From Candidatus Marinacidobacterales bacterium (GTDB lineage: Bacteria; Acidobacteriota; Vicinamibacteria; Marinacidobacterales; DATDRI01), in the NCBI GenBank assembly GCA_965226495.1, contig OZ245365.1:4416001-4480000 (forward strand): a stretch of 64,000 nucleotides of DNA, in the 5' to 3' direction. A model generated the notes under the pieces. That model saw nothing but the letters and a program-made list of their open reading frames with translations. It ran no database searches and was not told where the DNA came from. Shown in pieces: positions 15,496 to 35,064 of this stretch. The translations under genes and the position numbers were made by a program. Every line of letters begins with the position of its first letter. Position 1 is the stretch's first letter.

Positions 15496-18180
15496 TCACT
15501 TCGGGGGGACGAGGCGTTTCAGCTCTTCCAACCAGTTCTGAACGAGAATGAGCTCCGGTTGAGAGGTTTCGTCGTTCGCACCGGCGTCCTTGATCATCAA
15601 GAAACGCTTGCCGTCGCGAGACACGTCATAGCTCCGACCGGGGGCGCCAGCCTCGGCAGAGTATGATTCCTCCAGGACGACCTCGGGGCTGCCGAAGGCG
15701 AAACTGGGGTCGGTGCGAACAGAGACCGCCATCAGTTGCCCGGTTGGATCCAGGTAGAACAACTCGCCGCCGTCCCGTGCCCAGAGTGGCCGTGTCCCAC
15801 CGCCTCTCGAGATCTGGTCCCGACCCTCGTCCACGTTGGGGAACGGGCGCACGTAGATTTCATATTCACCGGAGGCGTCCGACTGGTAGGCCAGCCATCG
15901 GCCGTCGGGTGAGATCTCGGCGTTCAGCTCGTTGAACTCGCTGGCCAGGAGAGGCTCCCCCAAACCGTCGCCCTCCAGAGAGAGCACGCCGAGATCGCGA
16001 CCTCGTTGGGGATGGTCCTCCCGATAGACCAGCTGCTTCCCGTCCAAGGAAAAGACATACGGGTACTGGTTGTTCCTGCTCTCGGTGAGCCGCTCGACCG
16101 TGCCAGTGCCGTCGGCCGCCTTCCAGAACAGATTCCAAGATCCGTCGCGGGCCGATGCGAATGCCACCCGCCGCCCGTCCGGTGTCCAGGTCGGATAGGC
16201 GTCGCCACCGGGGTCGAACGTGAGCCGCCGCAGCGTCTCGCGGGTGAAATTCCAGATCCAGATGTCACGTTCCTGATCGCGCACGTCGAGAGCGAGCCGG
16301 CTCCCATCGGGAGAAATGCGTGGGTAGGTGTAGTTCCGGGGCTCGGCCGCGAGCGCCTCTTCTCTTCCTTGTCGATCCACCCACACCAGCATTCTTTCTT
16401 GCCCTCGCGGATCGCCGGCGATATATACGAGGGATCCGTCCCGCGAGATGCCGAACTCCGCCGCGCCGCTGGATTTTGTGATGACACCTTCCAGGACGGG
16501 AATGGGGTCGCTCGTGACCTCGAGACGCTCGAGGTCGAAACCCACCGCTCGGAGCGTGCCGCCGGTGCCATAGACGATGTGACCCGTGGGCGCGTAGCGC
16601 GGGTTGCTTCCACCGGGAACGAGGACCTCGACCTCCCCGGTCACGAGTGACAGCACCGCAATCTGGGCGTTCTCGACTGGCCCACTCATTACGGTGAAGA
16701 GAACGCCCTCACCCGCGGGGAGGATCTCGGGCCACCGGTGACTCCCTTGTTTGTCGGGCGTTGTCAGCTGCTCCGGCTCGCCGCCACCTACCGGGACGCG
16801 CCAGAGCCTGCTGGGCGCACCCGCAGCGAAGACAATGGTGTCATCGGCTCCCCAACTCGCGCCGCGGTAGGGTAGTCCCGGAAGGTCACAGATGGTCACC
16901 GGCGGCCCCCCGAGGATCGAGACTTTCCGCAAAGTTAGCCCGTCAGTGTACGCGACCCAGCTACCGTCCGGTGAGACGAACGGTCCGCGGGCGACGTTGC
17001 TGAGCCCAGAGAGCGGCGTCGCCTCGAGCCGATCCAAGGAGCGCACGAAGAGGCGGGGTTGGCCGTCCAGGAAACCTCGATACACGATGCGCGAACCGTC
17101 CGGAGTGATGGCCAAGTTCCCAGTGCCTGAAAAGATGTCGAGGCGAGCGGCATTCGGCGGCCTCGCCACCACACGAACGAGAGGGCGTGGGGTTTCCGGT
17201 TTTAGACTCCAAACTGCGACCCCCACGATGACGCTCGAAACCAATGCCGCGGCGAGCGCGGCTATGGACGGCCGCATGCCGACGCGCTGAGGCACGACCG
17301 GCGCGGATACGCCTGGTTGTGAGCCGCCCTCGGTGATCCACTTCAGTTGGCGTTCGACGTCCCCGGCCGTCTGCCAACGCTCGTCGGGATCCTTGGCCAG
17401 GCACGTCTTGACGACGTGGTCCAGTGCGGGAGGCGACATGGCCTCGAGTTGGGAGATCGGAGGAGGATCGGACGTCATGATCGCACCGATCAAACTCGCC
17501 TGACTCTTGCCCTCGAACGCCCTCCGCCCGGTTATCATTTCGTAGAGCACCGCTCCAAAAGCAAAGATGTCCGTGCGGCCGTCCGCATCTTTCCCTTCGA
17601 GCTGCTCCGGTGCCATGTACTGGAAGGTGCCAAGGATGGAGCCTTCCGCGGTGAGAGACTTCTGCTGCGTCGGCAGAGAGGAGTCACTGCCACCACCCTC
17701 AGCTGCCGCCAGCTTCGCGAGTCCAAAATCCAAAAGCTTTGCCCCCGACTTGGTGAGCATGATGTTGCCGGGCTTCAGATCCCGATGCACCACACCTTGG
17801 CGATGTGCTTTGTCGAGGGCGTCCGCGATCTCGACGCCGTGGCGAAGCGCTTGATCAAGGGATAGTGCGCCTTTCTTCAGTCGCTCGGCCAGGTCTTCGC
17901 CTTCGAGGTACTCCATGACCAGGAAGTCCACGCCGTTCTCCTGGCCGATGTCGTGAAGCGTGCAGATGTGTGGATGATTCAGGCTGGAGACGGCTCGGGC
18001 TTCACGCTCGAAACGCTCCCGTCGCTCGGAGTGGCCGGAAACTTGAGAGGGAAGCACCTTGACGGCGACGGTGCGATCGAGGCGGGTGTCCTTGGCCTTG
18101 TAGACCTCGCCCATCCCACCCGCACCGATGGGTGCGAGGATCTCGTAGGGACCTAGTTTCCTGCCGGGTTCGAGTGCCAT
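15496..18180 (-). CDS. Hanks-type Ser/Thr kinase with TM helix and TolB/PD40 beta-propeller (paralog 1)
   Basis: GAGGMGEVY, VAVK, HRDLKPGN, DFGLAK, YMAPE; TM; repeated SPDG; C-terminal 'NWLEELKRLVP'. Confidence 0.95.
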   Translation of the reverse strand: MALEPGRKLGPYEILAPIGAGGMGEVYKAKDTRLDRTVAVKVLPSQVSGHSERRERFEREARAVSSLNHPHICTLHDIGQENGVDFLVMEYLEGEDLAERLKKGALSLDQALRHGVEIADALDKAHRQGVVHRDLKPGNIMLTKSGAKLLDFGLAKLAAAEGGGSDSSLPTQQKSLTAEGSILGTFQYMAPEQLEGKDADGRTDIFAFGAVLYEMITGRRAFEGKSQASLIGAIMTSDPPPISQLEAMSPPALDHVVKTCLAKDPDERWQTAGDVERQLKWITEGGSQPGVSAPVVPQRVGMRPSIAALAAALVSSVIVGVAVWSLKPETPRPLVRVVARPPNAARLDIFSGTGNLAITPDGSRIVYRGFLDGQPRLFVRSLDRLEATPLSGLSNVARGPFVSPDGSWVAYTDGLTLRKVSILGGPPVTICDLPGLPYRGASWGADDTIVFAAGAPSRLWRVPVGGGEPEQLTTPDKQGSHRWPEILPAGEGVLFTVMSGPVENAQIAVLSLVTGEVEVLVPGGSNPRYAPTGHIVYGTGGTLRAVGFDLERLEVTSDPIPVLEGVITKSSGAAEFGISRDGSLVYIAGDPRGQERMLVWVDRQGREEALAAEPRNYTYPRISPDGSRLALDVRDQERDIWIWNFTRETLRRLTFDPGGDAYPTWTPDGRRVAFASARDGSWNLFWKAADGTGTVERLTESRNNQYPYVFSLDGKQLVYREDHPQRGRDLGVLSLEGDGLGEPLLASEFNELNAEISPDGRWLAYQSDASGEYEIYVRPFPNVDEGRDQISRGGGTRPLWARDGGELFYLDPTGQLMAVSVRTDPSFAFGSPEVVLEESYSAEAGAPGRSYDVSRDGKRFLMIKDAGANDETSQPELILVQNWLEELKRLVPPK

Positions 18181-18184
18181 CTAA

Positions 18185-18300
18185 CCCTCACCCGGCGTCT
18201 GACGACGTTGATAGCAGCACGGCATCTTTTGACACCCTACCGTCCCCAAACAGGGAGAGGGAATAAAGGAAGAAAGCCATCATTGTTGAGCTGAAAATAG
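18185..18300. repeat. Shared leader repeat upstream of kinase paralogs (copy A)
   Basis: CCCTCACCCGGCGTCTGACG...GATAGCAGCACGG...GGGAGAGGG(A)ATAA...GAA(A/G)GCCATCAT, similar to 50097-50192 and 52853-52924. Confidence 0.8.
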
Positions 18301-18360
18301 TACCGCGCAGGTTGAAAAGTCAAAGAACAAGAAGGAAGCGAGTAGGGATGTCCCGGCCAG

Positions 18361-18746
18361 TCAGGATTTCCGGAAAGCCGCGTCCAAGGCGCGGTCGAAG
18401 GTCTTGATGAGCGAGACGCGGCGACGCTTGCAGCAAGCCAGGTGAAGAAGGTCGCGGGCTCCGAGCTCTGGGTAGCGCTCCACCAAGAGCCTTCCGAAAC
18501 GGACGTCCTCCGGCTCGACAGGCCACACCGACCCTACGCTGGACTCGACGAGAGCAAGCGCTGCATCCAAGGTCTCGATCCGCCGCACTGGCAAGTATGC
18601 GTGTAACAATTCCTGGAGAACTTCGGCTGAGGTAACGAGGTTTTCCTCTTTCTTGAGGCTCCGCTCGAAGAAAGCCCTCGACTCGGCACGCAGCGGGTGC
18701 TTTCGGCCCACCGCTACATGAAGACGTTAGTGTCGACTAAGGTCAT
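18361..18746 (-). pseudogene. vapC: VapC-like PIN-domain toxin with a 1-nt deletion near the 5' end
   Basis: ATG 18746 gives MTLVDTNVFM then TAG; adding one base (TA[C]GCG) gives YAVGRKHPLR...TSAEVLQE...ARDLLHLA...TFDRAL, a complete PIN domain. Confidence 0.8.
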
Positions 18747-18840
18747 GTTTCGGACTGACCGGAGGAACCGAGCGCTCGATTACGAAACGGTGCTCCTCCC
18801 AATCACGCTCAACGTCCTGTTCTTCCCAGCTACGGTTCAC
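18743..18840 (-). pseudogene. Probable C-terminal remnant of the cognate antitoxin
   Basis: Reads ...EQDVERDWEEHRFVIERS..., and a shifted frame ends SGQSET-TGA overlapping the vapC ATG; no N-terminal DNA-binding part because the immunity gene ends at 18849. Confidence 0.4.
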
Positions 18841-18848
18841 TCGGAGAC

Positions 18849-19517
18849 CTAAGCATCCTCCCAAATTGCAGCGAGACCAGCAAAGGGAGTGAAATCACGC
18901 GAGATCCCCTTCAAGATCTGAACAAACTGCTCCTCGCGTGCCGGATCCCAACGGTCTCTCGACTCCTTCTTGAGTTTCTCTACCAGCATTCGGCCTCGTT
19001 GGGGCTCGTCCTTCAATACGCAAATTGCCAGTTCGATGGCGGCTTTGGTTTCTGAAAGCACGTTGCTGTCGTCCAACTCGAACATTGCACTGAGATCCTC
19101 GATACTGTTTATTTTATGTAGGTACGGCAAGGCGAACTTCTCGATGGCTTCGAGTATCGAAACTTTTTGGGCTTCGACATCTTCCGTATCGGCAAATCGC
19201 CAATCGAACAACGCGTCGGTCGAGGGCAACAGATTGTAGATGTGCGTTCCGACCGTCACACCGCGACGTTTGCTGGCATCCGATACTCTCGGCCGGTATC
19301 TGTTCAGTAGCTCCTCAATCCTCGTAAACCGGAGGCCAGCCGAGAACTCCAGTCGATAGACGTCGCCGCCACGTGGAGTGAAATAGATCGACAAGGACCG
19401 CACGACTTCTCGATCGCGACGGACAAAACGTCTCTGCGACTTCCGGTAGCTGAATCCTGCTCTGTGAAGGATTGGTTCCAGCAGCTCGATGACCCTGTCG
19501 GTCAGAATCTTCATCAT
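18849..19517 (-). CDS. Candidate immunity protein (DUF4304-like) for the upstream nuclease toxin
   Basis: ATG overlaps the stop of the 4031-aa gene; 'LEPIL...GFSY.KS...FVRR' N-terminus and 'IEKFALPYL.KI.S.EDL' resemble DUF4304-type proteins; visibly more AT-rich than flanks. Confidence 0.65.
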   Translation of the reverse strand: MMKILTDRVIELLEPILHRAGFSYRKSQRRFVRRDREVVRSLSIYFTPRGGDVYRLEFSAGLRFTRIEELLNRYRPRVSDASKRRGVTVGTHIYNLLPSTDALFDWRFADTEDVEAQKVSILEAIEKFALPYLHKINSIEDLSAMFELDDSNVLSETKAAIELAICVLKDEPQRGRMLVEKLKKESRDRWDPAREEQFVQILKGISRDFTPFAGLAAIWEDA

Positions 19518-22500
19518 TGTTTGTCGGCGATCCTCTCTAGGAGCTTTTTGAGCGAAACCTTAGCCTCCACTGTCGTGATGCGACCCGTCGCGCCCTGGAG
19601 CTCGGCGTCCGCTGCTCTATCGCCTACGAAAGTGCCACCTTTTTTCTCCAGCTCCACGTCCTTCGCACGTTGGGCACGAGGTCGTTTTGCCCCGACCGTC
19701 TTCACTTCTACGTTGAATAGCTTCCCATCTCTTTTTCTTATTATGAGGACATCGATGACGCGTCTTTGGGGATTCTTTGCTGTTTTAACCGAGATACGTG
19801 TTCCCTTGACTCTAACTTTGGGATTCCTCAGAAGTTTCTCGAGAATTATTTCTTCGCCGAGATCGCCTTGTCTCTTGATGCCCAGGCCGGTCTTTCCTTT
19901 CGGCTGCTTGCCCGAGACCGTCTTACATTGGTTGTGAACCCAGGCTTCGGTCTTTCCGACGAAATACGTATGATCTTCCGCGACTTCGAAGTTGTAAACC
20001 GTCTCCGCCCCTCGTGGCGACCCGCGCACCTGACGTACCTTGAGCCATCCGTCGCGGGCGGTGAAAATGGAATCGTCCTCCCTCAATTGACCCGCCTCCA
20101 CCCAGCCGCGCCCGGTGACCCAGAAAGGATGCTCCTTGGTGACTCCCAGCGTTTCCGAGGTTCCGTCCGAAGCCACCAAATCTAGATCGAGCGTCTCCTT
20201 GTTGGGCGTGGAAGCCGGCGTGGGATCGATCAAGCTGCCCCGATCGGTCGCCACCGCTCTCAGGTCGTAGTCGCCGAAGCTCAGACTCAGCGCATCGGGA
20301 TCGAGGTTACCTTCCCAGGGCTCGGCGAGGTCCGCGGCTCCGAGGGGCAACCAGTCGATGTCGGCGGCGGCTTTGAACTCGAACTGCACTTCGGCCACGT
20401 CTCGGTCCTCTGTGGTAGCGAGCACGTGCAGCGCCGTATCGAACGCAGTCCCGTCGAGAGGGCTGACGATGATGGCCGCGGGCGGGCGGGTATCGATCTC
20501 GGCATCGGCCGGCAAAGAGGGCTCGCTGAGATTGCCCGCTTCGTCCATAGCGAAGACTTCGTAGGTGTAGTGGCCGTCCGGTAGATTGAGATCGAGAAAC
20601 TCGTCGGGCGTGATGACGAAATTGCGAAGATCCCCGACCACCAGCCCGTCGGCATTGGCGAGGCGGTCATCGCGAAACAGGAGATAGCCGAGCAGATCGT
20701 CCTCGGTATTGGGATCCCAGTCGAGCTGCACGTCGTTGATGACGGCGTCGGGGTCGGAGGCGACCTCGGTGGCCGTCAAACCGGTGGGCGCCGCGGGCGG
20801 GAGGTTGTCGATGATCACCACCACCGTATCGACACCGACGTTGCCCGTGAGATCTTCCCCTTCCAAGCGCAACGTGAAGGGAGCGCCTTCCGTCAGCCCC
20901 AACGTGCTCCACTGAGCGAGCAGATCGCTTTGAATCGGTACCGGCGAGCGACGCAAGAGCTCGAGTGTAGTGGGCGTTTCACCCGCACCCACGAACAACC
21001 GGTACTCCTTGAAGTCGTCTTGGCTGAACGCGGTGCCTTTGACATCGACGAGTCCGCTGACGGTTTCGCCGGTGGAAGGTCTTTGGATCCGAACCGTCGG
21101 TGGCGTCACATCCACGACGAGCTCGGCCGGATTCGAAGGATCGCTCTGGTTGCCGGCGAGATCGACGGCGACCACGGTATAGACGTAGGTACCTTCGAGC
21201 AGATCCGGATCGAGGTACGTTGTATCGGGCAGGAGCTCGGTGGTGATCCGCTCGCCGTCACGGGAGACGTGATAGCCGGCAAGATCGGGCTCGGTGTTGG
21301 CGGTCCAGTTCAGCCTGGCGCTATCACCATCCTCGAGCTCAACGGTCAATTGGATGGGAGGCGCCGGCGGCGTCAGATCGACGTGGACCTCGGAGAGCGT
21401 TGAGGCTTCGTTGCCAGCGGCATCCTCGGCATGCAGCCGAAGCGTGTAGAGACCATCTGGCGGTGGGGCGCGAAGCTCGATGAGCGGACCATCCGTGACC
21501 GAGCTCAAGCCGACTCCGATCTCCGTGAACGCTGCCGCAACGTCTTTCTCGCCTGGCGCTATCGACACCGCATACCGGGTCAAATGCTCGTCGCTCGCCG
21601 TGCCCACGAGGTTCTGAACTCCGACAAGAAAACCGCCATCGTCGGGATCGGTGATCGCGACCACGGGGGGCGTGTTGTCGACCGTAACCAGGACACGGGC
21701 CTCGCCGGTCTGACCCGCCCGGTCCTCGGCAATGAGCCTCAACGTAAAGGGACCATCATCGAGCGACGAAACATCCCACTGAGTGAGCTCCGCCGCGGTT
21801 GGCAACTCCGTCGCCGCGAAGATTTCGACAAACGCATCGGGAAGAGGCGCAGCGCCCGGAGCGAACTCCACGCGGTAAGTTTCGAGATGCTCCTCCACCA
21901 CGGTACCGAGGACCGGTGTCGGACCGCTCGCCCCGGACAGGAAGCTTCCCTCTGCCGGCCCGGTGAGCGTGACGACCGGCGCGGTGTTATCCACCTCGAA
22001 CGGGATGATGACCTCGGCACGGTTCTCTGCCTGGTCTTCGGCCTCCACCCGAACCGCATAGTCGCCGTCCTCGAGAGCGTCGAGGCGTGCCAGGATGGCG
22101 TTCATCCGATTCGCGTTGCCCCGGGCTAGCTCGGTCCAGACGGGAGCGGCCGGCTCGTTGGTGATCGAGATGACGTAGCTTTGTATCCGCTCGTCTTCAA
22201 TCGATCCTTGGATGGCGGCCTCACCGGTCAAGAAGCCGTCGGGCTCGGGGGCGTCGAGCACCACCACCGGCGGCGTGCGATCGACGATCACCGTGACGCG
22301 TTCTTCTTGATTGACGCTCGGATTGCCCGGGAGCTCGGCGCGGAGAAGCACCGCATAGAGCCCGTCCGGAGCGTCGTCTCCTCCATCGGTCTTGCCGTCC
22401 CAGGGTCGCACCGCGGCGCCAAAGCCAAGCACCTGTCCATCGACGAGGGTACGAACCGGAACGTCGCCCGGTTCGAGGAGGGTCAAGAAGACTCTGGCGT

Positions 22501-25500
22501 CGATATCGAGAGCGAAGCGAATGCTCGACGTCTCGCGCCTTCCGTCGCCATTGGGTGAGAAGAGACGCGGCGTTGCCTCGAGGTCTTGAATCAAGTTGGT
22601 ACGACTCGCGAGGTTGAGAGAGACGAACGTCTCTCCCTCGTTTCCGGCTAGATCCCTCCCGAGCAAACGGAGCGTGATGTCGCCTTCGAGACCAAATGTA
22701 TTCCAGACACCGGCCACCTCGGCGTCGAGCTCCGTGGCGCTGGCGAAAATCCGCGCCCAAGTCTCGGGCGCCAACCCGATCCCGAAATCGAGGCCGTAGG
22801 CCTGGAAGTTACGATCGGAGACCGAACCCACGACCTCCACGATCATCGTGATGGGATCGCCCAACTGCGGAAAGGCGATGTTCGTCTCGGGCGGCGTGTT
22901 GTCCACCTCGACCTCGACCCACCTCCGGGCTCGATTGCCGCAAGCGTCTTCATAGTCGGCAAATACCAGGTAGGTGCCGTCGGGCACCCGGGCACCGCCG
23001 TCGTTCGTGCCGTCCCAGATCTCGAACGCCAGATCGAGTAGCGAAAAGCGCGACAAGAGCGTTCGGACGCGCGAGCCGGTCACCACCGGGCGCCGCTTCT
23101 CGTCGATAAAGCCCGGAAAGATCTCGAGGTCGACGAAGGCAAGCTCCTGGCTCTCGATCTCCAGCGTGACGTCGTCGAGCGTGCCGTCGCCATTGGGTGA
23201 GAACAGACGGAGGTCGGACCTCAAACCGGCGCCCTCCACCTCACCATCGAAGAAGAAATTTGTTTCCGTGCAAACCAGCGCACCGCCCCAGTCGCTCGCC
23301 TCCAGCCGTAGAGTGGCGTCACCGGTGAAGGCGGGCTCGTCATCGCCGTAGGTACCCAGCGTCCCCGCGATGCGGAACCCTCCAGCGGCGCCTAGCGGCA
23401 CGACAAGAGGGGGGGATATTTCGAAGGTTAGACCCGCTTGGCCGTCTCGTGACAACACGAGCCGGTACTCGGCCGCGACGTCGTCGTCGACCACGCCCTC
23501 GACGTCGAATACGTTTCGGATCTCGCCGCCGATCTCCCGGGGAACCCCGCAGATCCTCTGTCCTTCGAGGGGGAAGTTGATGGCGATGGTGGGAGGCGAT
23601 TGATCGATGGGTAGTCTAATGGTCCTCTCCGTTCGATCATCATCTACATCGCTCAACCGAAAGACGAATGACTCGATGGGCTCGAGATCCTGAGTCTCGA
23701 GCAGAAATCTCTGCGGCTCCTCTATCGGCGGCCGGTTGACGCTGAAGAGGATGTCCTCTTGTCCGTCCGGAAGCAGGCGTGCCATGGTCAAGAGCTGTAG
23801 AGAGGTGCCCTTGCCGCTGTCGGGTGTCACAACGAACTGAAGCAACTGCGGCGCCGGATCGCCACAGGATTCGGCCACCACCGGGGCGATTTCGACGCTA
23901 ATCGTGAGACAGGGGCTTTTGAAGCCTACCTCTCGCGAGCGAATGCGGCGTCGGGCGGTCTCGCCGGTGGCCGGATCGACAAACGGCTCGGTCACGACGA
24001 CCACGAAGCTCTTGTAGGCTTTGCACGCCACCCAATCGTCGAAGCCAAACAGGATGACGCCGTCGGTGACGGCCTTGGGCTCGAAGCTTTGCTCGTTGGC
24101 GTAGCGTGGATCCTCATCGCTCTGGATGAACAGCTGGATCTCTTCCAGCTCCAGGGCCATGAACTCTTGCGCCCAAAGGACGATGTCTCGGAGGCCGAAG
24201 ACATTCTTCTTCTCTTCAACGAACCGAGCTACGTCGGCCGGTGGCTCGTCCGGCGGCGTTGGCAGTGGACCGCCATAGAACAGGCCATCGGTGAGCACCT
24301 GGAAAGTGTTCGAGAAGTGCTCGTTGCCTTCGAGATCGACCATGCGCAGGCGGAGGACCGTGACCACCCCCGGCATGACGCCGGCCATGTCCCAGACGAA
24401 TTGGAACCTTGGCTCGGGAATCTCGAAGCTCGGGGGCACAGGGTTGAAACCTACCGGCAGGAATTGCTCGATGCGTGTCTCCTGCCAGAAGACCTGCGCA
24501 AAGGGCCGAAACTGCACATGGACCTCGTCGATCTCCTCTCGCACCGTTTCGGCCAGGTTGAATCTTGCGTCGCCCTGTGCGAGCTGAATGAACGCGCCGA
24601 TGCCGTCGTCGGATGTCGTGGGAACGAAGCGCACCTCCTCGAGCCGTTCGAGTTTTCCTTCCTCGCTGAGAATATGCGAGCCGAAATCGGTCACGACGAT
24701 CTCTTCGAGCCCCAGAGGCGTCGTGACGAGGGTGCGATTCCCCGCCCGGTCGCTCGCGTCGAGACGAAACCGATTTCCAACGAACTCGTCCAGATCGAGG
24801 AAACGGGTGAGGCTTCCGTCGTCCTCCGCCAGGAGGAAGCCAGGAGTCAACGGAGACCAGGACAGAGGATCGGCCCCTTCACCCAGCTCGCGGAAGTCTT
24901 CCTTCAAATTGGGATCCACGACCGTGAACACGAGCTGCGGCGAAACGCCGGCGACCTCCTCACCACTCGAGGAAGAGTTCACTCTCTGATAAGCGCTCTT
25001 CAGGAGCAGCTCGACCTCGGGTGGTGTCGAGTCGACGTGGATGAAGAACTCGAAGTTCTGCACGGTCATCCGGTACTCGCCATCGGGAACCGGCAGGCCT
25101 CTTTGGTCGCGTCCATCCCACACCAGCTCCTGGAGCCCGATCACGGGGTGATCGCGCTCGATGGTGCGGACCCGATCCCCTTTGTCGTTGAAGAATCCGA
25201 ACTCCAGACTGATTGGCTCGAGCACCCGATAACCAACGGTTGCGCTGTCCTGAATTCCGTCGCCGTTGGGAGAGATGAACTGCGGGGTGCGGAACAAATC
25301 GGTGATACTGGGGATATCGTTCCAGGAAACCCGTTTGACCGCACGGCGTTGGTTGCCCGCCAGATCGTGAACGGTGAGACGCACCAGGTAGGAGCCTGGC
25401 GAGGGCGGCACCCAGGTTGTAAAACGGGCGTCGACGACCGGCTCCGCGGCGGGCGGACCAATGGGGCTGAAGCTTCCCGGGCTCGAGGCGCGAGCGAATT

Positions 25501-28500
25501 CAAGCGTGTAGTGCGAGAAGTGAAGATCGGCGGCGGTGCCCTCGATGAGAACGCCTCCCACCGTGGACGATCGTCTCGCCCTCAAGTCGGCGGTGAGGTT
25601 CATCAGAGAGCGGAACGACCACTCGTCGGCGAACCCACGCAGGAAGCAGGGGCTGGTGACATCGTTGCGCGCGTCCCGCGACTGGAAGAGGAGCTGGCGT
25701 CCGGTGGGCGAGAAGCCGCGCACCGCCCGGTGGTTGAAGTCCTCGAAGAGCTCGACACGCCGATTGTCCTCGTCTAGCAAGAAGGCCAAGGTCCGCGAGA
25801 AGCTCGAATCGAGCACCGCGCGCTCGTTGGGAACCCAAAAGTCGTCACCAAACGTGTCGATGAAATCGTCGTCCTCCAGCGTCTCGGCCGCCGAGCCGTA
25901 GGCCTCGAAGGCAAGGCTCAACACATCGCCGGGAGCGGCGCCGATCTCGGCCAGCGGAATCTTGAACTCGTAGTACTTGTGGGGATGAAGGACGCGTCCG
26001 GTATGAGTGAAGCCAACGATGCCGTAACGAGAATCGGCGGTGGTGATACGGAACGCCTTGACGCCTTCCGAGGTTAGTACCTGAAGTTCTGCCCAGTCCC
26101 GACCGCCATCGACCGTATTGTCGACCGTGAAGTCGAGCGCGGCGTAGAGATGCTCATCGTCGCTTCCCGCCCAGCCCACTACCGTGGCCGCGGGATGGCC
26201 GGTGTCGGGCTTCGACCACTGCTCGAAGAGAGGCTCGTCGAGACCGTCAGCCGAGGTCTGGAGACCATCGACCTTCAGTCCTTCCTCGCTGGACAGTCGG
26301 TAGTTGTAAACGCCCTCCTCCCGGGGATAGCGCAAAGGACGCACGCGGAGGCCACTGAGCGTTTCCTCACGAGCGATGAGATTGAGGCGCACGGGCTCGC
26401 CTTCGGGAAGGCCACTCCACCCCAGCTCAACGCCTCGCTCGTGGAGATCGATGACCTCGTAATCCGCATAGCCGACCTCATCCAGGACGTCATCACCGGT
26501 ATCGTCTCGAAGCGCCCGGTCGGGAAGGAAGATATGGTCTCCCACGCGCAGCGTGACGTTGTCCACATGTGCCGCCTCGTGACCACTTTGCGTAATCTTG
26601 ACCTTGAACTCGCCGTCGGCGTCGGGTAGATGCTCGCTCAGATCGAGCTCTTGTTCGGCGTATTCGAGGCCGTAGTGCAACACGCCGCGCGCAACCCATG
26701 CGGTTCCGTCCCAAGTGTGGATACGATAAGACTCTCCAACCTCGAGGTGACTCTGAGCGATCGACTCGACCTCGCCGGTCACGGTATTCACGACGAACAG
26801 ACGATCGAAGAAGAAGCTAAAAAAGTCGATGCTGTAGGAGACGCGGACGACGAGCTCATCGCCAAAGCTCGACCAAGACGGTGTCTCGACGAAGTCGAGC
26901 TCGAGATCGCCGCTCTCTTGATCGGGATGCGGCGTCAGAGGGAAACGGATCGTGCGTAGCCGCTCACCCCGAGCGTCAAAGATAACCAACTGAGGCTCGG
27001 GTCCCGTTTGATCCACCACCGCCAGCCTCTGGCCGTCCGGCGACCAGGCGTGGTTGCGGGAAACGACGCCGAGGTCCGTCATCTCGCCGGTGGCGATTCC
27101 GACCAATACAGTTGCCGGGCCGCTGCTGAACTGTCGGAGAACCAATTGGCGCTCGTCCGGAGAAATCGTGATATCAAATAGAGAGCCGGTGCCTCTGAAC
27201 ACCTCACGAGGCGGCAAGAAACCGCCGAGAGGATGCGCTTCGAGGAGCCTACCCGACTCTCGGCGCACCAGCAGCGTTTCGCCGCCTTCGGCAAAATCAA
27301 CGATGTCGGTTCCAATCTGGTTGATGACCGGACGGCGGTTGTTGCCGCGCCCATCGGCCGTCCAGATCTCGCCTCGGAAGCCCTTCTCGAAAGCGATGCG
27401 CGTGCCGGTGCGATTGACCCTCAGCTCGTTGGGACTCTCGGTGGCTGAGAAAAAATCGGCCGGTATGAGCTCCTGCAGACCCCCGCCGCTCGAATCCACA
27501 CGATAGATGCCACGGGCGAACAGCGGGTCGCCCGTACCGGTGATCGCGAAGTAGAAGAACTCCTCGTCGTCGGTAGTCTGAAAATAGCTCACCGTCGGGA
27601 GCTCGCAGGTGAGATTGGTGAAGAGCTCGAAGTCGGTCCCGACCGCTCTCAGCAGCGAGGAGCGATTCGTATCGACGCTGACGGTCGCTCGCCCGATGGT
27701 GGTTCCGGCGCTGCCGACGGCAAGGAGCGCATAGTCGGCATCCGTCACCAGTCGGCCGCGGTGATCGAGACCGTCCCACTCGAAGCTTCCCGTGTCGCCG
27801 CTAAGAACGTCCGAAGTCCGGACCACCTCATCGCGCTCGTTTCTAACCTCGATGCGCACGTCCGCCGGTTCATCGAGACCATAGAAGAGCTCGGTCGAAT
27901 CCTGAATGCCGTCGCCGTTGGGCGAGATATGGCGATGGGTGACGAAGACGTTGCCTTCCTGAGCCGCCACGTTGATCTGCGCCCGGTTATTGACCTTCGA
28001 GCTCTCCAAGATCAGATCCGCAGGGTCGAGCAAGGCGACGATCGGCCGGGTCTCGCCGCCCGTGAACGTCCAGGTAAAAGACACCTCGGCGCCCGCCAAG
28101 CCTGCCACCGAGAAGACCTGATCGCCTCCCACCTGCATCCCGGCACCGTCAGGATCGCCCTCGAAGGCCTGCGCCACGACACCGTCCGCTCCCTGCTCAC
28201 CCAAGTTGCTGTTGGTCAGCGTGAGGGTGACGGTATCGCCGGGCCTCGGGAAACGCGGCTCCAGACGAAGCGCGGCAGGGGAGATGGCGAGATCCGGTAG
28301 GCTCAGCACTTCGAGCTTCTTGAAGCCCGAGTTGTCGTCCTCTCGAAACTCCGGGATGAGGTCGTCGGGATCGGCGACGACGAAGATGAAGCGGTCGCCG
28401 GCATCGGGAACCGGGCTCCAAACGAATTCCGCCATCACGCTGGCCGCCGGCGCCAGCTCAGAAATCACCGTGGTACCGATGAGCTCACCGCCTTCCCCCG

Positions 28501-31500
28501 GATTACCGTCGTAGAAGGCGATCATCACGTTGCTGGCGAGCTCGCCGCCCGAGTTGTTCACGACCGCCGCCAGCGTCACCGGCGCGCCCTCGAGTCCAGG
28601 ATCGGGCGCAAAGGACAACTCGAGCGATCGAATCGAAAGATTGGCCGGCCCAATGTCTTCCGTGGTGAAGGGAAGCAGGGCGAGATTGTTGGTCTCATCC
28701 ACCTCGGGCACCGAGGCGTCGGGGTCGAGCTCGGCCAGGAAACTCAGGTCGCCGATCCGGTCCACCCGCCACAAGACGGTTTGGGTGAGGGTTTCTCCCC
28801 CGTCGAGCTGAAGCACGTTGCGACCGAGCTCGATGACGCTGCCGCCATCGAGGATCGCGTAACGCACCGCGGTGCTCGGGGTGTCGACGGTGCCCCGATT
28901 CCGAAGCGTGATGCGGAAAGTCGCATCTTCGCCGCGCAAGGCGGCGCCGTCGACGAGCTCGACATCCGCCGGGACCACCTCCAGATCGAGGGTGGGCAAC
29001 GTCGTGACGGAGGTCGAGGCACGGTTGTTGCCCTCGCTGGCTTCGACAATGTCGTCTTCGGGGTCGAGACGAAAGGTGAAGTGGGTGACGCCCGCTTGGA
29101 GAAGTAGGTAAGAGAAGTTGACCACCGTCGTTTGCCGCTGCGGGAAGTTCACCATCTTGGTCTCGAGGAGCTCGCCACCCTCGGGGCTTCCCACCCAGAA
29201 CTCGACGCTCACGTCGGCCGCATCGGTGCGGCCCAGATTGCGGGCCTGTACGCTGAATCCGAGAGTGGTCGGGAGGGTGGCGGGCGCGGGTGGCGTCACC
29301 ACAATGTCCACGGGGCGAATCTCGAGATCGGCTTCGGCAGGAGCGGGAGCCACTTCGATGTCGAGTCGGGCGCGGTTATCGAGCTCGCTGAGCTCGTTCA
29401 CCGCGCTGTCCGGGTCCAACACGGCCACCAGGGTATGGTTGCCAGGAAGATCGAAGCTGTCCCAAAACACCTTGACCGTGGCGGTGCGCCCAGCAGAAAG
29501 GCTCGGCAGCTCGACATCCGCAAAGGAAACACCGCCCGAGTCGGGGTCGCCGTCGAAGAATCTCACCAGACCCGAGGGGGCTACCGTGGCGCCGTCGTTG
29601 GCAACCTGCAACGTGAGCTCGACCCGATCGCCATCACGAGGCTCGGCCGGAGACGCCTGGATGGGGCCTGCAAAGCGCCAGTTGAGAAACGCGGAACGCT
29701 GAAGGGCGTCGATGGCGAGCGCGGTGGCGTAGGTGCTCCCCGCCCAACTTCCTTCCAAAGTTTGTCGCGTGCGCAGATAGCTGCCGGCCTCCTCGGCTCG
29801 GATGGTCGCGAGCGCGTCCAAGGCGATGACGGTGCGTAAGACGGAGGCGGTGTCGTGGACGGTGCTCGGGCTATCGCCAAAGCCGCCGTCGGGATTCTGC
29901 CGCGAGGCCAACCACTCGAGGGCCCGTGTCGAGACCTCGGTTTGTCTTCCCACCGCCTTCAGAGCGGCGAGTACGAGGGTAGTGACGCGGGCTCGGCTGG
30001 CACCTTCGAGCACGTTGCTCCAGCCTCCATCCAGGTTCTGGTGTGCGACGAGGAAATCTCCTGCTTTCGACATGGCCGCCTCAACACCCGGCCGGTCCCC
30101 GAGCGCCAACACGGCCAGGGCGGTATCGAGGGGATCGCTTCGAAAGCCCGGCGACAAGCCCCACCCACCGTCTTCATTTTGGAGATCCAGCAGCTCGCTT
30201 CTTGCGTCTTCGCCACCATCGAGCAGACGGGTGAGGCTGCGGGCCTGGCGGGCCAGACCGTCCACGTTGGGGGGCGCGAGCGCTCCGATCCAGTCGAGCG
30301 CGCGGGCCTTGCCCGCAAAGACCGGATCCAGATCGCTCAACATCTCGAGCGAGACGGTGGTGTCGCGGAGGCGCGTCGGGGGAGTGTCCTCCCAGAAGCC
30401 TTCGGTCGTTTGCTGTAGCCGAAGCCAGGCCAAGCCATCGGCGATGCTGGCCTCGGTGGGGCGAATCGTACCGGGGTCGATCCCGGAGGGCTCGCCGCGA
30501 GCCACGTCGAGTCGTGCCTCCGGGAAGACCTGAACGATGGCCCGACCGCCGGTAACGACCGAGAAGCGGGTTTGAAAGGCGTCACGAACGCGGGACAGAG
30601 CGGCTACCAGCCCACTCGTAACCTCGTCGCCGGGACGTTTGAGAAGGATGAAAGCCGCACGGAAATCCTTCTGTGACTCCGCGGCGCTGGGGCTGCGGAG
30701 CCCCTCCACGGCGATGATGTCGTCCAAGGTGACGGGCGAGGCGGTGCCGCTGACCGTCGCTCCTCGCTCCGGCAGCCGGGTACGATCGATCTCGGGATTA
30801 TCGATCAGAAAGAACGGCTGTACTTCCTCCGGTGCGAAGAACCCCGCAAGATACAAATCGAGAGGACTGTAGAACCGGCGCGCATCGCGACCCAAAAAAG
30901 TCCCATCTCCCTGATCCCGCCAGTCGTGTCCATACATGATCGAGGCATCGGTATCGAGGAGAAAGCTCCAGTGGGCATCCTGCGCACCAAGCAAGGCTGA
31001 GCTTTCTGGACCGTTGAACTCCACGAAGCAACACCACTGGTGCATCACCTCATGCGCCATGGTGGCAAGGAGTTGTTCGAAATCCGGGTTCAGCGGGTCC
31101 GTTTTCCAGCGGCCGAGAGCGGCCATATCGACATAACCGAGGAGGCGCCCTTCGCTTCCAAAAAAATCGGTGTTATCGAAGACGGGGAGCCCGATCCCGG
31201 AAACCTGATTCTGGACCCCGAGATGAAATGCCAGAACATCGCCCGAATCGGGATCGGACGTATTGAACTCGAACGTAGTAAAGATGATGAGAAAGTCGAA
31301 GTTGTCGGGATGCTGCAGGTAGAACTCCTGCGCAATGAGGGTACGGGGCTCGAGGTTAAAGGAGCCGTCTTCGAGCTGCCGGCTGTAGTTGCCGATCAGC
31401 TCGATCACCGAGATGTGGTCTCGATCTTCGACGAATCTCGCCTCGAACTCGCCCGAAGAGATGAGCGACTCGATCGGGCCGCTGGCTTGCGCAAAAAGCA

Positions 31501-31609
31501 TCGTCGGGCAAAGCAGCGCATAGAGCAGCGACATGAGCAAGGGCGCACGCCGCACCGGGGGGACGGAACTCCTAATCCTGCGCTTGCTCCTTGGCCGGAC
31601 CCACACCAC
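19514..31609 (-). CDS. Giant secreted multidomain protein (zincin, prenyltransferase-like repeats, CARDB x5, FlgD-Ig, beta-propeller, CBM9-like, Ig/Fn3) ending in a Hint domain and PD-(D/E)xK nuclease toxin
   Basis: 4031-aa uninterrupted ORF; GAGG before GTG; AHEVMHQW; QNxDGGW repeats; five 'DP...V.E..E.NN' CARDB ends; four SPNGDG motifs; 'T.EHPFWV...GW..A..L', 'TVYNFEV...HTYFVG....VHN'; 'G..GE', 'IDVL', 'VEVKT'. Confidence 0.9.
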   Translation of the reverse strand: MVWVRPRSKRRIRSSVPPVRRAPLLMSLLYALLCPTMLFAQASGPIESLISSGEFEARFVEDRDHISVIELIGNYSRQLEDGSFNLEPRTLIAQEFYLQHPDNFDFLIIFTTFEFNTSDPDSGDVLAFHLGVQNQVSGIGLPVFDNTDFFGSEGRLLGYVDMAALGRWKTDPLNPDFEQLLATMAHEVMHQWCCFVEFNGPESSALLGAQDAHWSFLLDTDASIMYGHDWRDQGDGTFLGRDARRFYSPLDLYLAGFFAPEEVQPFFLIDNPEIDRTRLPERGATVSGTASPVTLDDIIAVEGLRSPSAAESQKDFRAAFILLKRPGDEVTSGLVAALSRVRDAFQTRFSVVTGGRAIVQVFPEARLDVARGEPSGIDPGTIRPTEASIADGLAWLRLQQTTEGFWEDTPPTRLRDTTVSLEMLSDLDPVFAGKARALDWIGALAPPNVDGLARQARSLTRLLDGGEDARSELLDLQNEDGGWGLSPGFRSDPLDTALAVLALGDRPGVEAAMSKAGDFLVAHQNLDGGWSNVLEGASRARVTTLVLAALKAVGRQTEVSTRALEWLASRQNPDGGFGDSPSTVHDTASVLRTVIALDALATIRAEEAGSYLRTRQTLEGSWAGSTYATALAIDALQRSAFLNWRFAGPIQASPAEPRDGDRVELTLQVANDGATVAPSGLVRFFDGDPDSGGVSFADVELPSLSAGRTATVKVFWDSFDLPGNHTLVAVLDPDSAVNELSELDNRARLDIEVAPAPAEADLEIRPVDIVVTPPAPATLPTTLGFSVQARNLGRTDAADVSVEFWVGSPEGGELLETKMVNFPQRQTTVVNFSYLLLQAGVTHFTFRLDPEDDIVEASEGNNRASTSVTTLPTLDLEVVPADVELVDGAALRGEDATFRITLRNRGTVDTPSTAVRYAILDGGSVIELGRNVLQLDGGETLTQTVLWRVDRIGDLSFLAELDPDASVPEVDETNNLALLPFTTEDIGPANLSIRSLELSFAPDPGLEGAPVTLAAVVNNSGGELASNVMIAFYDGNPGEGGELIGTTVISELAPAASVMAEFVWSPVPDAGDRFIFVVADPDDLIPEFREDDNSGFKKLEVLSLPDLAISPAALRLEPRFPRPGDTVTLTLTNSNLGEQGADGVVAQAFEGDPDGAGMQVGGDQVFSVAGLAGAEVSFTWTFTGGETRPIVALLDPADLILESSKVNNRAQINVAAQEGNVFVTHRHISPNGDGIQDSTELFYGLDEPADVRIEVRNERDEVVRTSDVLSGDTGSFEWDGLDHRGRLVTDADYALLAVGSAGTTIGRATVSVDTNRSSLLRAVGTDFELFTNLTCELPTVSYFQTTDDEEFFYFAITGTGDPLFARGIYRVDSSGGGLQELIPADFFSATESPNELRVNRTGTRIAFEKGFRGEIWTADGRGNNRRPVINQIGTDIVDFAEGGETLLVRRESGRLLEAHPLGGFLPPREVFRGTGSLFDITISPDERQLVLRQFSSGPATVLVGIATGEMTDLGVVSRNHAWSPDGQRLAVVDQTGPEPQLVIFDARGERLRTIRFPLTPHPDQESGDLELDFVETPSWSSFGDELVVRVSYSIDFFSFFFDRLFVVNTVTGEVESIAQSHLEVGESYRIHTWDGTAWVARGVLHYGLEYAEQELDLSEHLPDADGEFKVKITQSGHEAAHVDNVTLRVGDHIFLPDRALRDDTGDDVLDEVGYADYEVIDLHERGVELGWSGLPEGEPVRLNLIAREETLSGLRVRPLRYPREEGVYNYRLSSEEGLKVDGLQTSADGLDEPLFEQWSKPDTGHPAATVVGWAGSDDEHLYAALDFTVDNTVDGGRDWAELQVLTSEGVKAFRITTADSRYGIVGFTHTGRVLHPHKYYEFKIPLAEIGAAPGDVLSLAFEAYGSAAETLEDDDFIDTFGDDFWVPNERAVLDSSFSRTLAFLLDEDNRRVELFEDFNHRAVRGFSPTGRQLLFQSRDARNDVTSPCFLRGFADEWSFRSLMNLTADLRARRSSTVGGVLIEGTAADLHFSHYTLEFARASSPGSFSPIGPPAAEPVVDARFTTWVPPSPGSYLVRLTVHDLAGNQRRAVKRVSWNDIPSITDLFRTPQFISPNGDGIQDSATVGYRVLEPISLEFGFFNDKGDRVRTIERDHPVIGLQELVWDGRDQRGLPVPDGEYRMTVQNFEFFIHVDSTPPEVELLLKSAYQRVNSSSSGEEVAGVSPQLVFTVVDPNLKEDFRELGEGADPLSWSPLTPGFLLAEDDGSLTRFLDLDEFVGNRFRLDASDRAGNRTLVTTPLGLEEIVVTDFGSHILSEEGKLERLEEVRFVPTTSDDGIGAFIQLAQGDARFNLAETVREEIDEVHVQFRPFAQVFWQETRIEQFLPVGFNPVPPSFEIPEPRFQFVWDMAGVMPGVVTVLRLRMVDLEGNEHFSNTFQVLTDGLFYGGPLPTPPDEPPADVARFVEEKKNVFGLRDIVLWAQEFMALELEEIQLFIQSDEDPRYANEQSFEPKAVTDGVILFGFDDWVACKAYKSFVVVVTEPFVDPATGETARRRIRSREVGFKSPCLTISVEIAPVVAESCGDPAPQLLQFVVTPDSGKGTSLQLLTMARLLPDGQEDILFSVNRPPIEEPQRFLLETQDLEPIESFVFRLSDVDDDRTERTIRLPIDQSPPTIAINFPLEGQRICGVPREIGGEIRNVFDVEGVVDDDVAAEYRLVLSRDGQAGLTFEISPPLVVPLGAAGGFRIAGTLGTYGDDEPAFTGDATLRLEASDWGGALVCTETNFFFDGEVEGAGLRSDLRLFSPNGDGTLDDVTLEIESQELAFVDLEIFPGFIDEKRRPVVTGSRVRTLLSRFSLLDLAFEIWDGTNDGGARVPDGTYLVFADYEDACGNRARRWVEVEVDNTPPETNIAFPQLGDPITMIVEVVGSVSDRNFQAYGLDFGIGLAPETWARIFASATELDAEVAGVWNTFGLEGDITLRLLGRDLAGNEGETFVSLNLASRTNLIQDLEATPRLFSPNGDGRRETSSIRFALDIDARVFLTLLEPGDVPVRTLVDGQVLGFGAAVRPWDGKTDGGDDAPDGLYAVLLRAELPGNPSVNQEERVTVIVDRTPPVVVLDAPEPDGFLTGEAAIQGSIEDERIQSYVISITNEPAAPVWTELARGNANRMNAILARLDALEDGDYAVRVEAEDQAENRAEVIIPFEVDNTAPVVTLTGPAEGSFLSGASGPTPVLGTVVEEHLETYRVEFAPGAAPLPDAFVEIFAATELPTAAELTQWDVSSLDDGPFTLRLIAEDRAGQTGEARVLVTVDNTPPVVAITDPDDGGFLVGVQNLVGTASDEHLTRYAVSIAPGEKDVAAAFTEIGVGLSSVTDGPLIELRAPPPDGLYTLRLHAEDAAGNEASTLSEVHVDLTPPAPPIQLTVELEDGDSARLNWTANTEPDLAGYHVSRDGERITTELLPDTTYLDPDLLEGTYVYTVVAVDLAGNQSDPSNPAELVVDVTPPTVRIQRPSTGETVSGLVDVKGTAFSQDDFKEYRLFVGAGETPTTLELLRRSPVPIQSDLLAQWSTLGLTEGAPFTLRLEGEDLTGNVGVDTVVVIIDNLPPAAPTGLTATEVASDPDAVINDVQLDWDPNTEDDLLGYLLFRDDRLANADGLVVGDLRNFVITPDEFLDLNLPDGHYTYEVFAMDEAGNLSEPSLPADAEIDTRPPAAIIVSPLDGTAFDTALHVLATTEDRDVAEVQFEFKAAADIDWLPLGAADLAEPWEGNLDPDALSLSFGDYDLRAVATDRGSLIDPTPASTPNKETLDLDLVASDGTSETLGVTKEHPFWVTGRGWVEAGQLREDDSIFTARDGWLKVRQVRGSPRGAETVYNFEVAEDHTYFVGKTEAWVHNQCKTVSGKQPKGKTGLGIKRQGDLGEEIILEKLLRNPKVRVKGTRISVKTAKNPQRRVIDVLIIRKRDGKLFNVEVKTVGAKRPRAQRAKDVELEKKGGTFVGDRAADAELQGATGRITTVEAKVSLKKLLERIADKQ
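19517..19930 (-). other. C-terminal restriction-endonuclease-fold toxin domain (138 aa)
   Basis: Highly basic; QGDLGEE...RRVIDVLI...FNVEVKT...Q, the E...D...ExK order of PD-(D/E)xK nucleases. Confidence 0.75.
19931..20209 (-). other. Pretoxin Hint (intein-like) domain lacking its N-terminal block A
   Basis: Block B TKEHPFW, block F VYNFEV..DHTYFV and terminal His-Asn (19931-19936) are present; no upstream C-F..GT.V motif, and the sequence joins directly onto an Ig-like repeat (…DPTPAS|TPNKETLDL). Confidence 0.8.
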
Positions 31610-31612
31610 GGG

Positions 31613-32017
31613 TCACCTCTGATTTGGCTTTTCGCGGCTCGGGGCCGGTTTCTTCGCCAGCTGGTCGTCGGGGGGGGTTCGATGTAGAACGAGAAGGCGG
31701 GACTTTTGGCCTAAACCTTTGCTCTTGAAGAGCCAGACGGTTCGTATTTCCCCTGGCTCGTCGGGAGAGTCGGCCTCGAGACGCTCCTCGAGAACCAGCC
31801 GATCCTCCAAGACCTCTTCAACCACGGCGGTGGTGCCGGAAATCGAGCTTCCGATCTCCAGAAGCTGGAGCTTTCCCTTGGGGAGCCGAACCACGGCCTT
31901 GCCGTCCACCGAAGAAAGGGAAACGAGGACGACTTCCTCGAGTTTGCTATCTTCGACCGCTTGGGCGGGGAGAGCCAGCAAGAGGGAGAAAATTGAGATC
32001 CGCAACACCATTCCCAT
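31613..32017 (-). CDS. Small exported protein resembling the PilP / GspC-HR beta domain
   Basis: Signal peptide; 'LEEVVLVSL...KAVVRLPKGKLQLLEIGSSI....AVVEEVLEDRLVLEE' follows the PilP/GspC-HR pattern; stop lies 3 nt before the giant gene. Confidence 0.55.
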   Translation of the reverse strand: MGMVLRISIFSLLLALPAQAVEDSKLEEVVLVSLSSVDGKAVVRLPKGKLQLLEIGSSISGTTAVVEEVLEDRLVLEERLEADSPDEPGEIRTVWLFKSKGLGQKSRLLVLHRTPPDDQLAKKPAPSREKPNQR

Positions 32018-34994: not shown

Positions 34995-35064
34995 CTTTTT
35001 CTCTCCCTAGATTGATGCCCTTGACTTACTATCCGGCCGTAACATATTACTCATTCACAACACG

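Follow-up and report, generated by a model that had tools for sequence, protein, structure and literature searches.

A truncated giant CARDB/Ig-like gene fused in frame to the end of an RHS-type HINT-nuclease toxin: a probable deletion or recombination scar in a Marinacidobacterales bacterium

The locus described here lies in a 64,000-nucleotide (nt) stretch of the genome of a Candidatus Marinacidobacterales bacterium (assembly GCA_965226495.1, contig OZ245365.1, positions 4,416,001 to 4,480,000; hereafter the window, to whose numbering coordinates refer unless another contig is named), and consists of three co-directional open reading frames (ORFs) on the minus strand, the largest of which joins the truncated body of a giant CARDB/Ig-like protein to a toxin tip. 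This giant gene, P0001 (19514..31609), starts with GTG and encodes 4031 amino acids (aa). Its stop codon overlaps by 4 nt (ATGA) the start of P0002 (18849..19517, 222 aa), the putative immunity gene coupled to it, and its GTG is separated by 3 nt from the TGA of P0003 (31613..32017), which encodes a small exported protein of 134 aa resembling PilP and the HR domain of GspC. An earlier interpretation made from the letters and ORFs of the window (the sequence-only reading) had listed a 4031-aa giant, an overlapping 222-aa gene, and a small gene 3 nt upstream, all of which are real. It had also called the downstream gene AT-richer, as is borne out by its G+C content (GC), 0.53 overall and 0.63 at third codon positions (GC3), versus 0.63 and 0.76 in the body of the giant; the toxin segment at the end of P0001 has a GC of 0.52 and a GC3 of 0.57. 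The genome is assembled as one contig of 6.34 Mb.

Residues 1–3800 of P0001 (20210..31609, minus strand), the giant body, are collinear with the first ~3800 residues of a family of ~6000-aa proteins annotated as "CARDB domain-containing protein", with which they share a signal peptide, an HExxH domain, an α-α toroid, CARDB repeats, and an Ig-like stalk. With aa 40–640 as the query, 378 proteins of 2217–7055 aa were retrieved at E ≤ 1e-10, with sources including Thermoanaerobaculia, Gammaproteobacteria, Myxococcota, Undibacterium, and Duganella, among others; the 120 best-listed of these matches (median length, 6034 aa) constitute the comparison set used below. Briefly, a signal-peptide-like N-terminus (aa 1–41, as read from the sequence) is followed by an unannotated domain (aa 42–400; 30410..31486) carrying HEVMH at aa 186–190, whose HE..H residues are conserved in all 120 family members. 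This domain has no Pfam family at E ≤ 1 and no sequence match in the PDB, and in the Atlas it falls only into unnamed clusters (scores, 0.85–0.87); it may be an undescribed metallopeptidase domain. A conserved HW...D.DAS..YG stretch follows it. The α-α toroid of the squalene-cyclase/prenyltransferase type (aa 468–630; 29720..30208) is assigned by the Pfam families SQHop_cyclase_C, Prenyltrans, and SQHop_cyclase_N; its interpretation as a thioester (A2M-like) domain was ruled out by the lack of a C.EQ motif in aa 381–700. Five stretches of CARDB repeats (aa about 650–1200; 28010..29662; Pfam CARDB, E 4e-46) lead into the Ig-like stalk (20210..28009), in which Pfam recognizes FlgD_ig, Big_13, Big_3_3, and Big_7 together with PKD-like and PD40-like domains, and in which the last Ig-like domain is without its final strand. 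The sequence-only reading had described the carrier as a CARDB/Ig giant without RHS repeats, and Pfam agrees in giving five CARDB stretches, FlgD_ig, Big_13, and Big_3_3 and, at E ≤ 0.01, no RHS_repeat/RHS, haemagglutinin, LXG, MuF, or MafB family in P0001. The three Rhs cores of the genome are located away from this locus.

The window protein differs from its family at the C-terminal side. An ortholog from the related genome G038 is collinear over its aa 63–3847 with aa 38–3798 of P0001 (49% identity) and extends 2375 aa beyond, and three further relatives present the same picture. In 112 of the 120 best-listed relatives the alignment ends at aa 3780–3839 of the window giant, the end being earlier in the other eight; beyond this point, those 112 relatives continue for 959–3423 residues (median, about 2260). 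Thus aligned, the window protein is without the family's last roughly 2200 residues and has in addition a HINT-toxin tip that finds no match at E < 0.01 in any of the 120 relatives, and a by-eye reading of their precomputed Pfam lists revealed no PT-HINT or RHS accession. No conserved C-terminal anchor of the giants was found: with the last 500 aa of three giants as queries, the ends of the 120 relatives gave few matches or no match.

The joint between the two parts can be placed by alignments from both sides at codon 3800 (Ser)/codon 3801 (Thr) (20207..20212, minus strand). In an alignment with 12 relatives, the family continues as "...DPAPT.I.V.Y.D(V/L)TRP..." through the last Ig-like strand, where the window protein goes from "...DPTPAS" to "TPNKETLDL...". 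At this point the last Ig-like domain runs into the HINT domain with both of them broken off internally, which points to an illegitimate deletion or recombination and not to domain shuffling. The 7-mer CCACGCC is present on either side of the joint, and it is possible that it served as microhomology.

On the tip side of the joint, aa 3801–3893 (19931..20209, minus strand) form a truncated PT-HINT domain (PF07591; 48.1 bits for the whole protein and 53.7 bits for the last 248 aa, with a cut-off of 27.7), corresponding to profile positions 41–136 of 137. The first 40 profile positions, including the nucleophilic Cys, are missing, and no Cys occurs in aa 2890–3895 of the giant; block B (T.EH) and the C-terminal HN are retained, and about 20 residues separate this HN from the nuclease core. 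The ...EAWVHN sequence at aa 3888–3893 is identical in the two closest relatives of the tip that possess a full HINT domain, P0004 and L027, both of which are RHS proteins. At the N-terminus of P0004 (490 aa, from an ENA contig) stands the final part of an Rhs core (...YAKNNP..DPTGE), followed by a full HINT domain from CFVAGT, and the 84% identity of P0004 to the window protein begins exactly at window residue 3801, 46 residues into the HINT domain of P0004. L027, from a metagenome, measures at least 3549 aa and has Big_5, DUF6531, RHS repeats, and a full HINT domain (profile positions 1–136, likewise from CFVAGT) that is 63% identical to that of the window; the toxin following it reads differently from the window's, as judged by eye. 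The HINT domain of P0001 is the sole PT-HINT in its own genome. P0004, the sole close relative of the toxin, matches it up to the first nuclease strand and then runs into unrelated sequence, and looks frameshifted or truncated before the D/ExK residues.

With the N-terminal nucleophile and about a third of the fold lost, release of the toxin by the HINT domain is improbable; to judge from the sequence, the remnant probably cannot perform it. The self-cleavage assumed in the sequence-only reading is accordingly doubtful, and its outline of the tip, ~230 aa of Hint motifs ending in HN and followed by a nuclease, holds for the HINT, the HN, and the nuclease and needs correction in its proportions, the segment being a partial HINT domain of 93 aa plus a nuclease of 138 aa.

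The nuclease domain comprises aa 3894–4031 (19517..19930, minus strand; stop codon, 19514–19516). The 138-aa tail has no Pfam family at E ≤ 1 and no NCBIfam family at E ≤ 0.01. A HMMER search over 1.84 billion representatives found 108 relatives at E ≤ 1e-3, three of them at E ≤ 1e-10, and in nearly all listed matches the domain stands at or near the C-terminus of carriers of 76–2857 aa; among longer proteins of up to 2000 aa, P0004 was the sole match. From an alignment of the window tail with 55 matches picked from the shorter ones (56 sequences in total), the conserved residues G22, E26, D60, E75, V76, K77, Q87, K90, and D91 were identified, all of which are present in the window toxin, with E26, D60, E75, K77, and Q87 conserved in at least 90% of the sequences. 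Weak matches to PD-(D/E)xK families were seen among the 56 (DUF4143, 19; NERD, 11; UPF0102, 7; NucS_C, 3), and the parts upstream of the domain included RHS (3), PT-HINT (3), Tox-PAAR-like (1), and PT-TG (1). A domain that is C-terminal and present on unrelated carriers in this way is what characterizes a polymorphic toxin. The toxin profile also matches the C-terminal region of the Rhs effector 7q97_A (E 5.5e-5) and, weakly, an Hjc-like protein; 7q97 is RhsA of P. protegens, whose toxin is termed a predicted DNase in the available text of its description (PMC8765631).

The AlphaFold2 (AF2) model of the toxin domain (predicted local distance difference test (pLDDT), 90) has the order α-β-β-β-α, with the conserved residues located on H18–34, E57–65, E71–78, and H85–97. 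In VIA-align comparisons the nearest structures were VRR-NUC (4qbn; Z-score, 7.1), NucS (2vld; 6.2), Hjc (1gef; 6.1), and TnsA (1t0f; 6.1), with FAN1 at Z-scores of 6–7. The top Foldseek rows are nearly all PD-(D/E)xK nucleases, but at E ≥ 0.014, and no match at E ≤ 0.001 was obtained for this model or for that of P0003. The model is thus assigned to the PD-(D/E)xK fold, an assignment in which the Z-scores are middling and which is carried by the agreement among the rows and by the motif. According to the available text of Zhang et al. 2012 (Biol Direct 7:18, Table 2), Tox-REase-1, -6, and -7 have the motif string E/GxxxE, D, ExK, Q, which the window toxin fits, Tox-REase-1 and -6 having been compared by motif and not by alignment. 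The Tox-REase models of Pfam match neither the tail (E ≤ 1) nor any of the 56 aligned members (E ≤ 0.01). The nuclease that had been proposed to follow the HINT domain is thus supported, as a domain of the restriction-endonuclease fold, by motif, profile, and model.

Together with the downstream gene, this arrangement corresponds to the tips of RHS/YD polymorphic toxins with a pretoxin HINT domain, which, in the portions of Zhang et al. 2012 at hand, likewise consist of HINT, nuclease, and downstream immunity gene. By its relatives, the tip of the window protein (aa 3801–4031) is identified as the end of an RHS-type toxin. It differs from those toxins in that the window gene is without RHS repeats or an Rhs core, the HINT domain is truncated, and the carrier belongs to a different family. 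What is known, then, is the type of tip, an RHS-type HINT-nuclease with its immunity gene; what is new is its fusion to a truncated giant, not a class of toxin. The sequence-only reading had proposed an undescribed class and had suggested that homologs of the stalk be collected and their C-termini tabulated; this comparison yielded the same tip in none of the 120 best-listed relatives, and with both domains at the joint cut internally the case appears as a one-off.

The coupling of a putative immunity gene to the toxin, also proposed earlier, finds support in the ATGA overlap and in the predicted binding of the two products. For the predicted complex of P0002 and the toxin domain, the model's own confidence is 0.85, just above the mark, versus 0.64 for the highest of three controls; 58 of 80 solved complexes attain that mark, as do 2 of 110 mismatched pairs. 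The partner has a pLDDT of at least 87, and the runs share at least 77% of the contacts. The prediction supports binding of the toxin by P0002 and does not demonstrate it, its lead over the best control being no larger than the required minimum. The few relatives of P0002 (P0113, P0241, and P0242; 183, 222, and 130 aa) are all about 70% identical to it. There is no second copy in its own genome, searches of genome contigs and metagenome contigs revealed no relative, and NCBIfam gave no match. Its likeness to DUF4304 is weak (Pfam E 0.028; 14.8 bits versus a cut-off of 23.2; profile positions 2–114 of 115); the DUF4304 feature of the Atlas scores 0.94, with recognition under the 2300 mark.

Because the drop in GC coincides with the joint, the fusion might be suspected to be an assembly chimera that is absent from the organism, and in the run X14 the contigs do break exactly there, with a 30-nt overlap at 20181–20210. 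The weight of the data is on the other side. Whether reads cross the joint near 20210 had been singled out in the sequence-only reading, and Logan contigs from three runs bridge it: an X15 contig of 17,152 nt covers 18300–22300 and an X16 contig of 4,295 nt covers 18300–22250, each with 0 differences, and X1, a metagenome from another study, contributes a contig of 163 nt that spans 20121–20283, also with 0 differences. The assembly may derive from one of these runs, and not all are independent. Two C-terminal pieces of the gene from other assemblies, P0237 (aa 3310–4031, 100% identity) and P0238 (aa 682–4031, 99.94% identity), span the joint as well, and the genome itself is a single contig of the size given above. 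We therefore regard a chimera as very improbable. In X14, a separate contig of 796 nt matches 19932–20086 with 23 differences (about 85% alike), which would fit a further HINT-bearing sequence in that sample with the tip side in common.

Five other assemblies, from near-identical strains (99.9% aa identity), have gene calls that split the giant in two. The break falls at codon 3206 (21991 of the window) in three of them, at codon 3261 (21826) in one, and at about codon 690 (about 29540) in one. These split calls are either real frameshift alleles or assembly indels; they may be assembly errors, since the X15 and X16 contigs show no indel over codons 3103–4031 (18300–22300 and 18300–22250, respectively).

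The genes that follow full-length giants offer a source for the tip. A paralogous operon on the minus strand of the same genome (G000:C1:3108734-3137905; loci L024 and L025) consists of a 136-aa PilP-like gene, a 6012-aa giant (C1:3119521..3137559), and a 3596-aa RHS toxin gene (Transglut_core, DUF6531, and RHS) that overlaps the giant by 4 nt. The same Transglut_core+DUF6531+RHS neighbor with the same 4-nt overlap accompanies a 5829-aa giant in G098; behind the 4638-aa giant of G008 comes an RHS gene that includes an Rhs core, and behind the G038 ortholog an ORF with Transglut_core that is cut by the end of the contig. An RHS gene or its start therefore stands directly after the giant at four loci. 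At a fifth locus, in G010, an Rhs core is located on the same strand as the giant and 27.5 kb downstream of the N-terminus of the giant, which is the distance expected. RHS toxins with a signal peptide and an N-terminal inactive transglutaminase domain are described in the available text of Zhang et al. 2012; the genes behind the full-length giants share this architecture and are the presumed parent of the part lost from the window, in which no transglutaminase or RHS part is left. Their constant place behind a ~6000-aa giant finds no mention in that available text, and the accessible literature on CARDB, Rhs, and toxins contained no description of a giant–RHS operon, although one preprint, in its accessible part, names CARDB as one of the N-terminal domains that vary in the teneurin-like YD proteins of bacteria. 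Elsewhere in the genome of the window, two Rhs-associated cores (G000:C1:4996299-4996544 and 4998669-4998914; L003 and L002) lie 2.4 kb apart in frames of 332 and 341 aa and may be orphan C-terminal modules of RHS proteins.

Based on these observations, we infer that the ancestral operon would have comprised a PilP-like gene, a ~6000-aa giant (HExxH domain, toroid, CARDB, and Ig-like domains), a transglutaminase-RHS toxin, and an immunity gene, and that a deletion or illegitimate recombination would have fused the giant in frame to the end of the RHS toxin. Lost would be roughly 2200 C-terminal residues of the giant together with nearly the whole RHS protein, from the middle of the giant to HINT position 40 in the neighboring RHS gene, or ~17 kb ((2260 + 3340) × 3); left behind would be aa 1–3800 of the giant, the 93-residue HINT segment, the 138-residue nuclease, and the cognate immunity gene. 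On this reading the 4031-aa gene, a real in-frame fusion, is most likely, though well short of certainty, the scar of a deletion or illegitimate recombination in a conserved giant–RHS operon of a single lineage.

Several points weigh against it. No ancestral or sister strain came to light in which the operon at this locus is undeleted, and the nearest ortholog of the giant is just 49–58% identical, so that the route by a single deletion rests on parsimony and not on observation. In two genomes of the same genus no giant was found with the query used here, and a HINT domain is missing from every RHS gene observed behind a giant. The fusion is in frame and free of stops and retains all conserved nuclease residues and the immunity gene, which would also fit a fusion that is still in use; the same joint is present in all near-identical assemblies. 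The loss of self-cleavage and of delivery would be a deduction from missing parts, and, as is known from inteins, the C-terminal Asn of a HINT domain can chemically cyclize without the N-terminal Cys.

Some of these points bear on the origin of the tip, which together with its immunity gene might have been captured by recombination from a separate or foreign RHS locus instead of by an internal deletion. Such a transfer would agree with the lower GC3 of toxin and immunity gene relative to the giant, with the lack of another PT-HINT in the genome and of HINT domains in the RHS neighbors of giants, and with the X14 sample, in which the contigs break exactly at the joint and a second, 85%-alike HINT contig is present; swapping of tips is, moreover, a known habit of polymorphic toxins in the available text of Zhang et al. 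2012. It would, however, require two events, the insertion and the loss of the giant's C-terminus along with any RHS neighbor, versus one deletion, and the raw material for the deletion was probably in place, given the RHS gene or its start directly behind the giant at four loci and the Rhs core located where it would be expected at a fifth. We consider a transferred tip quite unlikely.

As to what the fusion does at present, the product of an in-frame deletion scar would be exported by means of the Sec-type signal peptide read from its sequence. It would then be a shortened giant, displayed on the surface or secreted, that has the nuclease as its C-terminal cargo. Delivery into neighboring cells would be improbable, as the RHS shell that encloses the toxin is gone; in RhsA, according to the accessible text of its description, the shell encloses the toxin, which is cleaved off yet kept inside until delivery (PMC8765631). 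Being synthesized at the end of a very long chain, the nuclease could fold in the cytoplasm of the producer, and because it could act there, the coupled immunity protein would still be needed. The toxin-immunity pair would thus stay intact in a manner resembling an addiction module, and it appears unlikely that the fusion still works as a weapon.

The alternative, which is the sequence-only reading narrowed to a single lineage, namely that the gene encodes a newly born, working surface-displayed toxin, with the nuclease on an Ig-like stalk and the HINT half still cutting after HN, draws on much the same features: the frame is open over 4031 codons, the conserved nuclease residues are all kept, the immunity gene is coupled and its product predicted to bind, HINT block B and the C-terminal HN are preserved, and the joint is identical in several assemblies and runs. 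HINT domains occur on all stalk types, and some toxins have extra adhesion domains, in the available text of Zhang et al. 2012. Set against this are the absence of such a tip from all 120 best-listed stalk relatives, the interruption of both domains at the joint within their folds, the missing HINT Cys and 40 profile positions, and the lack of an RHS shell or a recognizable translocation segment, with ~20 residues between HN and the nuclease core; furthermore, the gene calls of five other assemblies split it, and should these breaks be genuine, the gene is under weak selection. A working toxin of this kind is in our view unlikely, and we retain the deletion or recombination scar as the most likely explanation of the gene.

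The small protein P0003 is a companion of the giant family and not of the toxin. A signal-peptide protein of 133–178 aa with a like pattern lies directly upstream of the giant in four of four relatives (the own paralog, G008, and two G038 loci); since a gene of this type precedes every giant examined, with or without a toxin tip, it belongs to the giant family, and the role of the toxin's own export helper, which had been assigned to it, falls away. The PilP-like label given to it earlier is retained as a resemblance to PilP and the HR domain of GspC, with a Pfam match below the cut-off (T2SSC; E 3e-4; 21 bits under a cut-off of 27 bits) and weak Foldseek E-values. In the AF2 model (pLDDT 74, from an alignment of 5 rows), PilP occupies Foldseek ranks 1–5 and 7 (probability 0.87–1.0; E 0.014–0.5) and GspC rank 16, all at E ≥ 0.014. 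Like PilP and GspC-HR, P0003 has a signal peptide and a β-sandwich, the nearest structures being PilP 3jc8, 2lc4, 4av2, 2ivw, and 2y4x, and GspC 3oss; in contrast to them, no secretin or pilus gene was found beside P0003 in the ORFs scanned, no systematic search having been made.

The recurrent order of these genes invites a further, rather unlikely interpretation: the PilP/GspC-like protein, the ~6000-aa giant, and the transglutaminase-RHS toxin could form an undescribed Sec-dependent apparatus for the display or delivery of RHS toxins, of which the window gene would be a "Rosetta-stone" fusion whose nuclease may still reach targets. If this were true, the module would be widespread (378 giants at E ≤ 1e-10), and the giant and the toxin would act in the same place.

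What seems a striking new carrier of a polymorphic toxin tip can be a deletion scar, and the check that exposes it is to determine where the homology to the stalk family and the homology to the pretoxin domain each stop. As a natural in-frame fusion in which a toxin-immunity pair has apparently outlived the loss of the whole delivery shell, the gene bears on the persistence of orphan toxin modules. The more promising lead is the widespread, uncharacterized giants, with an invariant HExxH, a PilP-like gene before them, and, where readable, a transglutaminase-RHS toxin after them; this arrangement of giant and RHS toxin points to a functional link that is genetically testable, and this by-product may outweigh the main finding in value.

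Just downstream of the immunity gene, a 116-aa ORF at 18361–18711 (minus strand) matches the PIN domain (E 9e-13) over profile positions 13–116 of 120, with the N-terminal part missing, and may be the remnant of a VapC-type toxin. Next to it, at 15496–18180 (minus strand), lies a gene for a Ser/Thr kinase with a PD40 β-propeller from a massively expanded family, of which three related genomes contain 28, 77, and 111 matches (E ≤ 1e-30), many of them interrupted by in-frame stops; because of these 28–111 matches per relative, synteny through the flanking kinase gene gave no answer. An M20 peptidase gene near the locus has clear orthologs in the related genomes G001 and G002. On the other side of the locus, a 203-aa ORF without a Pfam family at 34383–34994 (minus strand) lies in DNA with a local GC of 0.44 (34500–34999), versus 0.61 for the window.

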